Assembly: GCF_013341275.1 (NCBI RefSeq)
Contig: NZ_CP054476.1
Location: 2,118,988 to 2,158,987 of the forward strand
Direction of reading: 5' to 3'
Length of the DNA stretch: 40,000 nucleotides
DNA from: Methyloligella sp. GL2
GTDB taxonomy: Bacteria; Pseudomonadota; Alphaproteobacteria; Rhizobiales; Methyloligellaceae
The notes below the pieces were generated by a model. It did no database searches. It saw only the letters and a program-made list of their open reading frames with translations, and was not told the DNA's origin. The position numbers were made by a program, and so were the translations under genes. The stretch's first letter is position 1. Each line of letters starts with the position of its first letter. Shown here one piece after another: positions 9,800 to 15,288 of this stretch.

Positions 9800-11257
9800 C
9801 TAGGCTGGGGTGCCGGGCTCGCCGTCGCCGTTGGGAAGCACCTGATTGGGCGGAATGTCGATCTCGCAGCGGACGCCTTTGGGATCGAACGCCAGGTCCA
9901 CATGGCCGTCCAGCGCCTTGCCGACGACGTTCTCGATCATCATGCGGCCGAAGCCCATACAGTCGGGCCGCGGCACGCGCGGGCCGCCGCTCTCCTTCCA
10001 GGTGATCTTCACGCCCTCGCCGTCGGCGACCTTCCAGCGCAGATGTACCTGGCCGTCTTCGGTAGAGAGCGCCCCCCATTTCTGGGCGTTGCTGAACAGC
10101 TCGTGCAAAGCGAGGCCGACATTCTGCACGGCGTCGGGCTTCAGCATCACGTCGGCGCCTTCGATATCGATCCGGTCCAGGGCGCCATCGCCGCGGGCGG
10201 AAAGCTCCGCCTCGACCAGGGATTTTAGCGGCGCGCCTTTCCAATCGTCGGCGACCAGAAGATCGTGGGCCGCGCCGATGGCGATCAGCCGGGCGTTGAA
10301 ATTGTCGATGAAGTCGGTCACCGAGCTGGTGCGGCTTGCCGTCTGGCGGGCAATGGCGTTGATCACCGCCAGCAGGTTCTTGGAGCGGTGGGTCAGCTCG
10401 CGCAGCAAGAGGCGGAGCTGGACTTCCTGCGCCCGCCGGTGACTGACATCGACGGCAACGGAGATGGTGCCCGCCGGGTCCTTCAGCGGCTCGATGCGCA
10501 AATAGAGCGAGCGCTGCTCGCCCGCCAGCTCGAAGTCGATTTCCAGCTCTTGAGGCTTCAGGCTCTCGATGGCGGCGCGCTTGGCCACCATGATCTTGGC
10601 GGCGGCGGTGGGGGGAAACACCTCTTCGTCGGATTTCCCGAGCAAAGCCTCGGGCGCCAGGCCGAAGGGCGGGTTGTGCACCCAGGTGAAGCGCATATCG
10701 GCGTCCTGGGTGAAGACGGTGATCGGCGAATTGCGCAAGGCGATCTCGAAGCGCTTCTCGACTTCGCCGAGCTGCCTTTTATGGCTGGCAATGCGGCTCT
10801 TCAATTCGGACCGGGCATCGGCCAGCTCTTCCTTGGTCATCAGATGGGCGGCGATCTCGGTCTCCAGCCGGCCCTGCGATTGGCGCAGCCGCGGCAGGTG
10901 GCGCCACAGCAGCACCGCACAGCCAATCACGAGCAGCGCCGTAACTACCTTGAGCAGCCCCTCTACGCCGCTCATCGGCGTCCACAGGTCGAAGAACGAG
11001 GCAAAATGTTCCAGTCCCGCCGCCAGCATGGCCACGCAGCCAAGCACGAGCAGCGCGCGGATGCCGCGGTCGCCGCCTTCGCGCTGCGTGGATGTCGTGC
11101 TCACCAGGCGGGTGAGCAGCACCACGGAAATGAAAAGCAGGGAAGCGGCGAGCAGGAGATTGCCCGCGACGTGCAGATAGGTCAGCTCCAGCGACCAGCG
11201 CACCGCCCGGGCCGCCGCACCTTGCGAGCCGAACAAAGACGAAATCCAAGGCTCCAT
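9800..11257 (-). CDS. membrane-bound PAS sensor histidine kinase, HWE/HisKA_2 family (candidate GSR kinase, 485 aa)
   Basis: N-terminal TM helices and a central PAS-like region. H-box LTHRSKNLLAVINAIARQT and HELFSNAQKWGALS are typical of HWE/HisKA2 kinases. Located next to the phyR-nepR-ecfG locus. Confidence 0.85.
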   Translation of the reverse strand: MEPWISSLFGSQGAAARAVRWSLELTYLHVAGNLLLAASLLFISVVLLTRLVSTTSTQREGGDRGIRALLVLGCVAMLAAGLEHFASFFDLWTPMSGVEGLLKVVTALLVIGCAVLLWRHLPRLRQSQGRLETEIAAHLMTKEELADARSELKSRIASHKRQLGEVEKRFEIALRNSPITVFTQDADMRFTWVHNPPFGLAPEALLGKSDEEVFPPTAAAKIMVAKRAAIESLKPQELEIDFELAGEQRSLYLRIEPLKDPAGTISVAVDVSHRRAQEVQLRLLLRELTHRSKNLLAVINAIARQTASRTSSVTDFIDNFNARLIAIGAAHDLLVADDWKGAPLKSLVEAELSARGDGALDRIDIEGADVMLKPDAVQNVGLALHELFSNAQKWGALSTEDGQVHLRWKVADGEGVKITWKESGGPRVPRPDCMGFGRMMIENVVGKALDGHVDLAFDPKGVRCEIDIPPNQVLPNGDGEPGTPA

Positions 11258-11602
11258 CGCCTAATATCCACCCGGATTAAACAGACTCGGCTTGGCCAAG
11301 ACACGTACCGCGACACGCACGGCGACACCCCTAGCGACCCTCATGTGACGCGACCCAGCAATGGCGGACGCGCTGCATCCCCTGATTCAATCGCCAGCCA
11401 GTCCCGGTATCACGGTCCCGGTATCGCCGTCTTGGACCCATAGCTTTGGCCTCGCAACGCAGAGACTGTTCGCTTAACCCCCCGAAGAGAATTTCGTTCT
11501 CGCGGTGCTGTCGTTTTGCCACGGTTTTTTGACAGCGGGGCCTGAATCACAGCCCGCCCGGCCGCCTAAGATGCGATGGTGCATTTTTTTGTTAATCAAA
11601 CG

Positions 11603-11627
11603 GGAACCGGTTGCGGGGTGCCGCGTT
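11603..11627 (+). promoter_or_regulatory. EcfG-type (general stress) promoter box GGAAC-N16-CGTT
   Basis: GGAAC at 11603-11607, 16-nt spacer, CGTT at 11624-11627, preceded by a T/A-rich tract (catttttttgttaatcaaa). Confidence 0.6.
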
Positions 11628-11633
11628 ATCTCG

Positions 11634-11730
11634 CCGTTCGAACGCTCGCGCCCCCTATCCCCCCCGCCCCTCCGCGGCGCTCGAATGCAACGTCCGTATC
11701 CGACTCTTCGGGTGCGGACGTTTTGCTTTT
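11634..11730 (+). ncRNA. candidate EcfG-dependent small RNA (about 95 nt, C-rich, GsrN-like), or alternatively a terminated leader of csbD
   Basis: Bounded by the EcfG box (11603-11627) and a strong intrinsic terminator (11691-11730). No RBS or credible ORF in between. C-rich tract ccccctatcccccccgcccctcc (11651-11673, 18 of 23 nt are C). The 5' end is predicted only (about 7-9 nt after the -10). Confidence 0.4.
11691..11730 (+). terminator. rho-independent terminator
   Basis: 13-bp stem CGTCCGTATCCGA / TCGGGTGCGGACG (two G-U pairs), loop CTCT, followed by TTTTGCTTTT. Confidence 0.65.
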
Positions 11731-11783
11731 GGCGCCCGTGGCTTCGCCGATTTCCGCGAACGGATATGTGAACCCCGCGTCCC

Positions 11784-11809
11784 GCAACTTTCGCCGCGGC
11801 CTCTGCGTT
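11784..11809 (+). promoter_or_regulatory. variant EcfG-like box GCAAC-N17-CGTT upstream of csbD
   Basis: GCAAC at 11784-11788, 17-nt spacer, CGTT at 11806-11809, 78 nt before the csbD ATG. One mismatch in the -35. Confidence 0.3.
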
Positions 11810-11886
11810 TTCCATCCAGTCCCGCCGGCAACTCCGGCGGACTGCATCCAGAACTCCATTGGACGAAGGCAAAGGAGGTTTTCAAA

Positions 11887-12084
11887 ATGAATTGGGATCG
11901 TGTCGAAGGAAATTGGAAGCAGCTGCAGGGCAAGGCCCAGCAGGAATGGGGCAAGCTGAGCCATGACGATCTCGAGCGGGTGAAAGGCCGCCGCACCGAG
12001 CTCGTCGGCAAGATCCAGGAGCGCTACGGCATCGCCAAGGACGCGGCGGAGGCCGAGGTCAATCGCTGGGCCGACAGGCTCTAG
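11887..12084 (+). CDS. csbD: CsbD-family stress response protein (65 aa)
   Basis: MNWDRVEGNWKQLQGKAQQEWGKLSHDDL...GKIQERYG is the canonical CsbD pattern. Strong RBS AAAGGAGG 7 nt upstream. The track ORF start at 11611 is a spurious in-frame extension. Confidence 0.9.
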   Translation: MNWDRVEGNWKQLQGKAQQEWGKLSHDDLERVKGRRTELVGKIQERYGIAKDAAEAEVNRWADRL

Positions 12085-12487: not shown

Positions 12488-13297
12488 TCAGGCGCGCATC
12501 GAGGATTGATCGCGCAAGCGCGCCTTGCGCTCGAAGAACAGCGCCTGGCTGACGATCGCCTTCACCGTATCGGGCTGATAGGGCTTGGTGATCAGGAACG
12601 CCGGCTCGGGCCGCTCGCCGGTGAGCAGCCGGTCGGGATAGGCGGTGATGAAGATCACCGGGACCTCGAAACCGCCGAGGATTTCGTTCACCGCATCGAG
12701 GCCGGAGCTGCCGTCGGCAAGCTGGATATCGGCCAGCACCAGGCCGGGCCGGTGTCTCTTCACCGCCTCGACCGCTTCGCCGTGGGTGCGGGCAACCTCG
12801 GTGACGGAATGGCCCAGGGTTTCGACGATGCCTTCCAGATCCATGGCGATCATCGGCTCGTCCTCGATGATCAGCACATCGGTGGCCACCTGCTGGGCGA
12901 TCTCCTGCCCCGCCTCCTCGACCAGCCGGTCGAGCTGATCCTCGCTAACGCCGAGGATCTGAGCGGCTTCGGCGGGCGTGAATCCCTCCACCGAGCAGAG
13001 CAAGAACGCCTGGCGCGGTAGCGGGGTGATGGATTCCAGCTTGCGATCGACGACATTGGCCAGGTCGGTCGAAACGTCCGACTGAAGATTGACGTCGAGG
13101 GAATTCCAGAGCCCGGCGAAGGTGCGGTAAAGCGCGATGCGGGGCTCCAGCTTGGTATTGAAAAGCGAAGGGTCTTCGACAAGAACCTCGAGGGTTGCGG
13201 CGACATAGGCATCGCCGGCTTGCTGGGACCCGGCAAGCGCCCGAGCAAAGCGGCGCAGAAACGGAAGATGGGGCGCGATGGCCTTGGATATGGACAT
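12488..13297 (-). CDS. phyR: PhyR anti-anti-sigma factor (sigma-like N-domain plus receiver domain, 269 aa)
   Basis: N-terminal ECF-sigma-like domain (LPFLRRFARALAGSQQAGDAYV ... FLLCSVEGFTPAEAAQILGVS). C-terminal REC domain (VLIIEDEPMIAMDL ... LVLADIQLADGSSG ... ITKP). Divergent from nepR-ecfG. Confidence 0.95.
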   Translation of the reverse strand: MSISKAIAPHLPFLRRFARALAGSQQAGDAYVAATLEVLVEDPSLFNTKLEPRIALYRTFAGLWNSLDVNLQSDVSTDLANVVDRKLESITPLPRQAFLLCSVEGFTPAEAAQILGVSEDQLDRLVEEAGQEIAQQVATDVLIIEDEPMIAMDLEGIVETLGHSVTEVARTHGEAVEAVKRHRPGLVLADIQLADGSSGLDAVNEILGGFEVPVIFITAYPDRLLTGERPEPAFLITKPYQPDTVKAIVSQALFFERKARLRDQSSMRA

Positions 13298-13431: not shown

Positions 13432-13456
13432 GGAACTGATAAAGATTTCAAACGTT
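13432..13456 (+). promoter_or_regulatory. EcfG-type promoter box GGAAC-N16-CGTT upstream of nepR-ecfG (autoregulation)
   Basis: GGAAC at 13432-13436, 16-nt AT-rich spacer (tgataaagatttcaaa), CGTT at 13453-13456, 65 nt before the nepR start. Confidence 0.65.
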
Positions 13457-13520
13457 TTTTCGGCAGTGTTCAGCGTGTCCGCTGTCGGGGAGCGGCAATT
13501 GGGGCGGATAGGGATTCAGT

Positions 13521-13769
13521 GTGAACGAGAAGGAAAAGTCAGAACGCCGGGACGAAAAGCCGGCGGGGAACGAGATGGATATCACCAGCGCAGAGACCGA
13601 GAGCGCAAGTCATACGGAAGAGTTGGAGCGCCAGGGAATGTCCCGGGATCTTCAGGGCCATATCGGACGGCAGCTTCGGGCGTCGTTCGACGAGGTCGCC
13701 CGCGAGCCAATTCCAGATCGCTTTCTTCAGCTCCTGCAAGAGCTTGAGAAGAACGGGCAAAATAAGTGA
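13521..13769 (+). CDS. nepR: NepR anti-sigma factor (82 aa; start uncertain, alternative ATG at 13575)
   Basis: Conserved NepR core IGRQLRASFDEVAREPIPDRFLQLLQELE. Stop overlaps the ecfG GTG start (GTGA, 13766-13769). Confidence 0.85.
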   Translation: MNEKEKSERRDEKPAGNEMDITSAETESASHTEELERQGMSRDLQGHIGRQLRASFDEVAREPIPDRFLQLLQELEKNGQNK

Positions 13770-14323
13770 AGCAACAGGTATCTGCCAGCCTTCGAGACGC
13801 CCTGGTGGGCGAGATGAGTTCCTTGCGCGCCTTCGCCGTGTCGCTTTGCGGCGACAAGGAGCGCGCCGACGATCTCGTGCAGGAGACGCTGTACAAGGCG
13901 TGGAACCATCTGGACTCGTTCCGCGAGGGCACCAATCTCAAGGCTTGGCTGTTCACAATTCTGCGCAACACCTATTTCTCCGAGCGGCGCAAGCGCCGGC
14001 GCGAAGTCGAGGACGCCGACGGCAGCTATGCGGCCAAGCTCTCCACCCGTCCCGAGCAGGACGGCCATATGGATCTACAGGATTTCCGCGAAGCTCTGGC
14101 GCAGCTGCCGGACGATCAGCGCGAGGCGCTGATCCTGGTCGGCGCGGCCGGCTTTTCCTACGAGGAGGCGGCCGATATTTCGGACTGCGCCGTGGGCACC
14201 ATCAAGAGCCGGGTGAATCGCGCCCGCAACCGTCTTGGCGATCTGCTCGACACCAAGGATGCGTCGGGAGACGACTCGACCTTGCGGGCCGCCATCGCCT
14301 CGGCCGGCCCATCCGGACGCTGA
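13766..14323 (+). CDS. ecfG: ECF sigma factor EcfG (ECF15-type general stress sigma, 185 aa)
   Basis: Region 2 is ADDLVQETLYKAWNHLDSFREGTNLKAWLFTILRNTYFSERRK. Region 4 is LPDDQREALILVGAAGFSYEEAADISDCAVGTIKSRVNRARNRL. Translationally coupled to nepR. Confidence 0.9.
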   Translation: MKQQVSASLRDALVGEMSSLRAFAVSLCGDKERADDLVQETLYKAWNHLDSFREGTNLKAWLFTILRNTYFSERRKRRREVEDADGSYAAKLSTRPEQDGHMDLQDFREALAQLPDDQREALILVGAAGFSYEEAADISDCAVGTIKSRVNRARNRLGDLLDTKDASGDDSTLRAAIASAGPSGR

Positions 14324-14968: not shown

Positions 14969-14994
14969 GGAACATCGCCGCCCGGCTCTGCGTT
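14969..14994 (+). promoter_or_regulatory. EcfG-type promoter box GGAAC-N17-CGTT
   Basis: GGAAC at 14969-14973, 17-nt spacer, CGTT at 14991-14994, about 140 nt upstream of the small membrane protein gene at 15133. Confidence 0.5.
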
Positions 14995-15132: not shown

Positions 15133-15288
15133 ATGGCCGAACAGAGTACATCCACCGAGTTGAACCCCAAGGAGGCCCGCCAGGGCACCCGGCCCAATGC
15201 TATGGTCTGGGTTCTCGGTATTTCGACCGTGGCCGCCGCCGTGCTGCTCTATCTGATCCTCGCGGTCGGCTGGACGGGCGCGCCCTAA
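15133..15288 (+). CDS. small membrane protein (51 aa)
   Basis: ATG at 15133 preceded by AGAGGTGA. Polar N-terminus followed by one TM helix (MVWVLGISTVAAAVLLYLILAVGW). Start chosen inside track ORF 15085-15288. Confidence 0.5.
   Translation: MAEQSTSTELNPKEARQGTRPNAMVWVLGISTVAAAVLLYLILAVGWTGAP

Follow-up and report, generated by a model that had tools for sequence, protein, structure and literature searches.

A candidate EcfG-driven small RNA with a C-rich loop in the general stress response island of Methyloligella sp. GL2

We analysed a 40-kb stretch of the genome of Methyloligella sp. GL2 (contig NZ_CP054476.1, positions 2,118,988 to 2,158,987; hereafter the window, numbered from its first base) and followed up a short element at 11603-11730 on its plus strand. 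In our assessment this element is probably an independent small RNA (sRNA) gene of the alphaproteobacterial general stress response (GSR), transcribed under the control of the sigma factor EcfG and acting through the pairing of an exposed C-rich loop with G-rich mRNA sites. Our confidence is high for the independent sRNA gene and moderate for the base-pairing mechanism. Comparative sequence analysis supports the promoter motif, the terminator, the predicted fold, the conservation and the synteny of the element. The original prediction, made from the sequence of the window, was of an EcfG-driven, terminator-bounded riboregulator inside the stress island, and it is supported by a promoter present in 60 of 61 family members, by covarying hairpins, by loop cytosines conserved to at least 90 %, and by synteny.

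Promoter, predicted fold and terminator of the element

The element starts with an EcfG-type (ECF15) promoter motif at 11603-11627 (+), which consists of the -35 sequence GGAAC (11603-11607), a 16-nt spacer and the -10 sequence CGTT (11624-11627). Just 5′ of the -35, at approximately 11583-11601 (+), direct reading reveals an A/T-rich tract cattttttttgttaatcaaac, which could be a UP-like element. Both the box and the upstream tract had been described in the original prediction and are present, the box at the positions given there. The gsrN promoter of Caulobacter also has an A-run 5′ of its GGAAC (PMC5869019, supplementary file 12). Perfect GGAAC-N15-17-CGTT boxes are rare in the window, with three observed against 0.76 expected, and three or more were reached in only one of 100 shuffles of the window. 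All three are located on the plus strand of the stress island, at 11603, at 13432 before nepR and at 14969 before an open reading frame (ORF) for a small membrane protein.

According to the primer numbering, transcription of the Caulobacter sRNA GsrN starts at the ninth base after CGTT (PMC5869019, supplementary file 12). Applied to the window, this spacing places the putative start at G11636, the first base of the first hairpin, and by this analogy the RNA would be 92-95 nt long (predicted transcript 11636-11730 (+)). The promoter box and a strong terminator are only 62 nt apart. The predicted fold of the 97-nt stretch has an energy of -42.4 kcal/mol, compared with -25.4 +/- 3.0 kcal/mol in shuffled sequences (z = -5.7), and none of the 200 shuffles was as good. 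It is composed of two hairpins, a 5′ hairpin with a 22-nt C-rich loop followed by the terminator.

The stem of hairpin 1 is interrupted and spans 11636-11650 / 11673-11686 (+), as seen from the minimum free energy fold and from covariation, with a conserved outer helix GUUCGA/UCGAAU. The short stem proposed originally (GCGCC at 11648-11652 with GGCGC at 11676-11680) is one register of the inner helix, but the true stem is longer. The loop is almost pure C, and we could confirm the 23-nt tract with 18 C at 11651-11673 (+). This single-stranded stretch, CCCCCUAUCCCCCCCGCCCCUCC, is the presumed seed of the RNA and contains the anti-Shine-Dalgarno-like sequence CCCCUCC. Its cytosines have predicted unpaired probabilities of 0.95-0.97 (mean 0.95 in the window).

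The second hairpin is an intrinsic terminator located at 11689-11722 (+) according to the terminator scan, with a stem of 15 bp and the loop CUCU. The 13-bp stem reported earlier (11691-11703/11708-11720, loop CTCT) is there and includes two G-U pairs; the scan lengthens it to 15 bp, after which TTTTGCTTTT follows. The U-tract UUUUGCUUUU occupies 11721-11730 (+), both by direct reading and by the scan. Folded alone, the terminator reaches -24.4 kcal/mol.

Regarding coding potential, the interval had been described as free of a ribosome binding site (RBS) or any plausible ORF. Mechanical ORFs do cross it, for example a TTG ORF at 11611-12084, which is in frame with csbD. However, we found no start signal for any of the ORFs crossing the sRNA interval, and the loops in the family alignment described below contain 1- and 2-nt indels, so the region is non-coding.

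Conservation of the RNA in Methyloligella and Methyloceanibacter

Searching species-representative genomes with PhyR, we obtained 80 loci, which all belong to Methyloligella or Methyloceanibacter. In most of them a motif scan detected an EcfG box, the series GUUCGAGGGCACGCGAAC..AUCAUCCCCGCCCCUCCCC..GCUGCACUCGAAC and a terminator with the loop CCUCCCCC, all on the opposite strand from phyR. We aligned 40 relatives using MAFFT without structural information (alignment A1). In hairpin 1 the Methyloligella rows of this raw alignment were misregistered, and for this reason RNAalifold recovered the terminator alone. The two-helix structure was therefore specified by hand and tested by pair counts and controls, and the covariance model built from A1 with this structure (R1) was used for realignment, which resulted in a model-based alignment of 61 sequences (A3).

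The covariance model found exactly one copy in the window, at 11628-11729, with 73.6 bits (E 2e-12), and one copy in each of 60 of the 80 phyR loci (38-122 bits). The positive loci include 21 that took no part in model building, with scores of 38-120 bits. Three closer metagenomic contigs were matched as well; the copy on L083 is complete, and L081 and L082 break off within the RNA and contain its 3′ part alone. The remaining matches were weak and located on the reverse strand at the palindromic terminators. Of the 20 loci with no copy, six are truncated, and in the other 14 the flank is 2.4 kb or longer (L034, L037, L055, L059, L062, L064, L065, L067-L069, L075, L076, L078 and L080).

Both alignments support the two-hairpin structure. 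In the structure-blind A1, 94.6 % of the cells are paired and 8 of the 23 pairs are changed on both sides; the corresponding values for A3 are 95.1 % and 11 of 23. None of the 500 shuffles reached these values in either case, and the controls with slid partners were paired in only 29-45 % (A1) and 17-50 % (A3). The double-changed pairs are shared by both helices. Across the family, helix 1 is paired in 91-92 %, and in 4-5 of its 10 pairs both bases have changed; helix 2, the terminator, is paired in 97-98 %, with 4-6 such pairs. It is chiefly the Methyloligella clade that contributes the covariation of the outer stem of hairpin 1, with CUCGG/CCGAG against UUCGAG/CUCGAA. The original prediction would have been refuted by a lack of conservation of the C-tract and the hairpins in syntenic regions of related genomes, but conservation was seen in 60 of the 80 loci and in the three contigs, with compensatory changes in both hairpins.

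The promoter is conserved together with the RNA. A GGAAC-N16/17-nGTT box is found at a constant distance from hairpin 1 in 60 of the 61 family members; the -10 is a perfect CGTT in 41 of these 60 and GGTT or AGTT in the remainder. The sole copy with no box, L044, is also the weakest match of the model. That a promoter-like box and a terminator were juxtaposed by chance, with no functional RNA between them, is extremely improbable given that more than 60 genomes conserve the element, with compensatory changes and with the promoter kept alongside.

The most conserved unpaired part of the family is the C-rich loop, whose cytosines are at least 90 % conserved (consensus CCCGCCCCUCCCC). In most relatives the terminator loop has a C-rich motif as well, (C)CUCCCCC (CCUCCCCC). 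Among these relatives are the three named Methyloligella species and, with a PhyR identity of 84-85 %, the closest metagenomic ones; examples are L083:4451-4552(-), L081:5325-5396(-) and most of L001-L077. The strain of the window alone has CUCU in this position, on a slightly longer stem, and the comparison with its relatives suggests that a presumed second seed was recently lost in it. Such a loss in a single strain provides a natural variant for asking what each of the loops does.

The family is not represented in Rfam. No match was found in the whole window at gathering thresholds, and a search of 11450-11900 at E <= 10 gave none for the element, its sole match being a spurious snoRNA on the other strand. 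A blastn search of the element with 'distant' settings against 72,556 plasmids also gave no match. With more than 60 sequences and covariation, the alignment suffices for the definition of an RNA family that Rfam 15 lacks and for comparative target prediction.

Position in the stress island and proposed mode of action

The location inside a general stress island, as originally proposed, was verified by Pfam searches on the neighbouring genes. In the order along the window, these are an HWE kinase, then after the sRNA element csbD, a DUF3309 gene, phyR, nepR, an ECF sigma factor and a DUF1328 gene. The HWE histidine kinase gene (9800-11257 (-); Pfam HWE_HK, PAS_4 and ETR1_N) is oriented divergently to the sRNA. 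As the family's invariant neighbour, it lies 125-660 nt upstream of the sRNA, with the same divergent orientation, in 56 of 60 loci (tblastn). On the other side, phyR (12488-13297 (-)) encodes a protein with PhyR_sigma-like and receiver domains, whose sequence matches a response regulator from Methyloligella sp. 2.7D with 100 % identity; the sRNA lies 758 nt from the phyR stop codon and in the same position in 60 loci. Further downstream are an EcfG box found by the motif scan (13432-13456 (+)), nepR (13521-13769 (+)) and ecfG (13766-14323 (+)), the two genes being assigned by Pfam. The nepR stop and the ecfG start overlap at 13766-13769 (GTGA), which points to coupled translation of anti-sigma and sigma factor. 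The third perfect EcfG box (14969-14994 (+)) is about 140 nt 5′ of the ORF 15133-15288 (+), predicted to encode a membrane protein of 51 aa (MAEQSTSTELNPKEARQGT...), and the same pair of box and ORF is also found in relatives at approximately 4.5-4.7 kb in their loci.

The gene that directly follows the element is csbD (11887-12084 (+); Pfam CsbD, E 4e-18), and the original prediction had offered as an alternative that the element serves this gene as a terminated leader or attenuator. The EcfG box would then be there to transcribe csbD, with the hairpin adjusting how much read-through occurs. The arrangement in the window fits this idea, as do the loci of the Methyloligella clade (L001-L003 and L083), where the sRNA precedes csbD by 160-200 nt in the same orientation. 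Moreover, the weaker box predicted for csbD at 11784-11809 (+) is present as GCAAC-N17-CGTT, with one mismatch in the -35 (GCAAC, 11784-11788), so some contribution of read-through is conceivable in this strain. However, the direct position upstream of csbD is restricted to the Methyloligella clade including the window. A convergent gene for a receiver-only response regulator stands between the sRNA and csbD in 50 of 60 loci, with csbD 600-940 nt away (tblastn), and as this gene on the opposite strand separates the two in most relatives, the sRNA is not a csbD leader there. Seven loci have no csbD nearby and still conserve the sRNA, and csbD of the relatives has its own perfect GGAAC box, from which the -35 in the window differs by a G-to-C change. 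The terminator itself, with its 15 bp, its low folding energy and its U-tract, is very strong, and no competing anti-terminator was found in the predicted fold. The synteny contradicts the leader explanation, which we consider very unlikely. In the strain of the window, read-through from the sRNA promoter may matter more for csbD, or the gene may simply have a lower expression; read-through is conceivable in this strain but is not what the element is conserved for. The intervening response-regulator gene encodes 114 aa (L004:7963-8307(+)) and is found in the same position in 56 other loci, which represent the Methyloceanibacter-type islands. No tblastn match to it was recovered in the 40-kb window, and none was detected near the sRNA in L001-L003.

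Reading the element as an independent sRNA gene, we propose the following course of events. Under stress, phosphorylated PhyR would free EcfG from NepR, and RNA polymerase with EcfG would initiate at the GGAAC-N16-CGTT promoter, at about G11636. The intrinsic terminator would end transcription and leave an RNA of about 93 nt with two hairpins, the 5′ one, starting at +1, presenting the C-rich loop and the 3′ one being the terminator. The exposed loop could then pair with G-rich stretches in mRNA leaders or Shine-Dalgarno sequences (GGAGG/GGGG) and alter the translation or stability of the targets, so that the RNA would form a post-transcriptional arm of the EcfG regulon. The dependence on EcfG, the action in trans by base pairing and the sign of the regulation are what we infer here. 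As the loop contains the anti-Shine-Dalgarno core CCUCC, repression by occlusion of the RBS is plausible, as in ar14, sX13 and 6C, and activation, as by GsrN on katG, would be equally possible.

A suggestive target is the initiation region of nepR. The site at 13501-13513 (+) contains GGAUAGGG (13506-13513), which is complementary to CCCUAUCC of the sRNA (11653-11660); the complementarity is perfect over 8 nt and extends to 13 nt with one mismatch. The site ends 8 nt before the GTG start codon and overlaps the likely Shine-Dalgarno region of nepR, which is G-rich and kept in the relatives as GGCGGAUAGGGGAC-N5-6-GUG. The coupling of nepR and ecfG would matter if an sRNA acts on this initiation region. 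In Caulobacter, the nepR mRNA co-purified with GsrN (PMC5869019). It is tempting to imagine that the C-rich loop pairs with the nepR Shine-Dalgarno sequence and thereby feeds back on the operon which controls its own promoter, and that non-homologous C-rich sRNAs (GsrN, ReC64 and the family described here) were repeatedly recruited to this locus for that purpose, but we hold this idea to be rather doubtful. In a co-evolution test on 59 genomes, the duplex energy was -18.98 kcal/mol for own-genome and -18.51 kcal/mol for cross-genome pairs (p ~0.05), and the longest complement was 5.58 and 5.40 nt, respectively (p ~0.03), both calculated with no phylogenetic correction. Own-genome pairs are hardly better than cross-genome pairs, so the targeting of nepR stays speculation.

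The RNA could also work with no mRNA pairing at all; its action could rest on a product of its processing, or on the binding or titration of a protein (Hfq or a poly(C)-binding protein, for instance). This would account for the outer stem GUUCGAG/CUCGAAC, which is conserved in sequence beyond what pairing requires, and long C-runs are unusual as seeds. On the other hand, no GGA-type CsrA motifs are present, and all characterised sRNAs with exposed C-rich loops (GsrN, ar14/NfeR1, sX13, 6C and those of the RNAIII type) pair with G-rich mRNA (see PMC5869019 and PMC4615179 for a part of them). We regard an action of this kind, with no mRNA pairing, as quite unlikely.

Several points weigh against an sRNA gene working by the proposed pairing. 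Where the RNA starts, how long it is and whether it depends on EcfG are all inferred. The outer stem of hairpin 1 is kept mostly as sequence, with few covarying events, and might have a further role, for example in protein binding or processing. No target can be named from 40 kb of genome; a search by duplex energy returned many sites at -30 kcal/mol in the window and was uninformative in such GC-rich DNA, and the nepR site, the one suggestive target, showed no convincing co-evolution in the 59 genomes. In 14 phyR loci no copy was detected although their downstream flank measures at least 2.4 kb, so the sRNA is not indispensable, and a generic analogue combining an EcfG box, a C-rich stretch and a terminator was likewise not found in them; in these lineages the sRNA is lost, moved or replaced. 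Finally, the second C-rich loop kept by most relatives is missing in the strain of the window.

Comparison with known C-rich small RNAs

The low-scoring Rfam matches come from a relative with a consensus-like sequence, L027:7974-8070(-). All three were below the gathering cut-offs: ar14 (RF02344) with 23.6 bits (E 0.008, cut-off 58.8), sX13 of Xanthomonas (RF02232) with 22.1 bits (E 0.019, cut-off 50) and 6C of Actinobacteria (RF01066) with 24.4 bits (E 0.18, cut-off 47). The RNAs of sX13 and 6C share with our candidate C-rich hairpin loops that are thought to pair with G-rich sites in mRNA; they are analogues from other phyla, not its relatives.

The members of ar14, or the cuckoo family (NfeR1, CcsR1-4), resemble our family in their adjacent hairpins, anti-Shine-Dalgarno-like C-rich loops, short linkers, alphaproteobacterial hosts and induction by stress. 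Instead of having arisen independently, our family could be a divergent true homologue of theirs that came under an EcfG promoter. In the L027 match the terminator hairpins align closely (ACGCCCGC..CCUCC..GCGGGCGUUUU). The promoter type differs, CcsR RNAs being dependent on RpoHI/II and NfeR1 being controlled by nitrogen and LsrB. The cuckoo RNAs carry CCUCCUCCC in the loop of each of 2-4 adjacent hairpins, and the relatives of the window RNA fit the description of the 'HP2' type, in which two neighbouring hairpins, joined by no more than 10 nt, both have a C-rich motif in their loops (PMC4615179). However, the motifs of the relatives, CCCGCCCCUCCCC and CCUCCCCC, are similar to CCUCCUCCC but not the same; the window copy has CCCCUCC in loop 1 and CUCU in the terminator loop, and thus a single C-rich loop, and it gave no Rfam match even at E <= 10. 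The score of L027 is far below the cut-off, and as families from three phyla score alike, we read these matches as analogy at the level of motifs, with a small chance of distant ar14 homology. The authors of the cuckoo study also view similar C-rich sRNAs as convergent (PMC4615179). Overall, true homology to ar14 seems unlikely to us.

Within Rhizobiales, an experimental precedent is ReC64 of Rhizobium etli, an RNA of 88 nt encoded beside phyR-tcrY with an EcfG1 promoter (Jans et al. 2013, PMC3892343). Its start was mapped by 5′ rapid amplification of cDNA ends and its EcfG dependence is direct (PMC3892343). As far as can be compared by description, both are short trans-encoded RNAs in the ecfG-phyR region next to a histidine kinase gene with the EcfG consensus upstream, but ReC64 is downstream of the kinase gene whereas the window RNA is divergent from it. 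A preprint on SuhB and EcfG and a review of ECF sigma factors contained nothing on EcfG-dependent sRNAs of the type found in the window.

The best-studied counterpart is GsrN of Caulobacter, which depends on sigmaT/EcfG and pairs through its C-rich 5′ loop with a G-tract at the katG mRNA's 5′ end (PMC5869019). Its homologues usually adjoin ecfG-nepR-phyR, and GsrN-like RNAs were predicted by three criteria next to stress loci in Rhizobiaceae, Brucella, Rhodopseudomonas and Bradyrhizobium (PMC5869019, section 14). Our candidate shares with GsrN the GGAAC-N16-CGTT promoter, a 5′ stem starting from +1, an intrinsic terminator and a length of about 100 nt, together with a large exposed C-rich loop as the best-conserved unpaired part, which here comes from prediction and covariation. 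It also has a near-consensus EcfG site and lies in the proximity of ecfG-nepR-phyR, as is expected of GsrN-like RNAs of the stress locus (PMC5869019). The GsrN family is, however, defined by BLASTn homology to GsrN of C. crescentus (PMC5869019), and in this respect the window RNA does not belong to it. We recovered the sequence of the gsrN locus (CCNA_R0081) from the supplementary gene blocks of Tien et al. 2018 (PMC5869019); an nhmmer profile of 61 family members gave no match to it at maximum sensitivity, and by blastn just 8-15-nt fragments of the promoter and terminator aligned. The original designation as GsrN-like is therefore consistent with the data by analogy of promoter, architecture and position, and does not extend to sequence homology. 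There are also structural differences. GsrN has a small inner hairpin and a 23-nt linker, which is a second seed and the processing site, whereas in our family the inner hairpin is missing and the linker measures 2-9 nt. GsrN is moreover cut by an endonuclease to give a stable 5′ isoform, and it depends on Hfq. The loop of GsrN is ACGCCCCCCGACUUGA, as opposed to the 22-nt CCCCCUAUCCCCCCCGCCCCUC with its CCUCC core in the window RNA, and the relatives of the latter differ from GsrN by the second C-rich motif in the terminator loop.

Judged by analogy, the RNA of the window appears to be a functional and positional counterpart of GsrN and ReC64 that belongs to a distinct sequence family. Its presence would extend to the Methyloligellaceae, with their halotolerant and marine methylotrophs, the rule that a dedicated sRNA arm is encoded beside the alphaproteobacterial GSR regulators. 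As promoter, position and C-rich loop match those of GsrN and ReC64 and the sequence does not, this family offers a test case for divergence beyond recognition versus convergent replacement.

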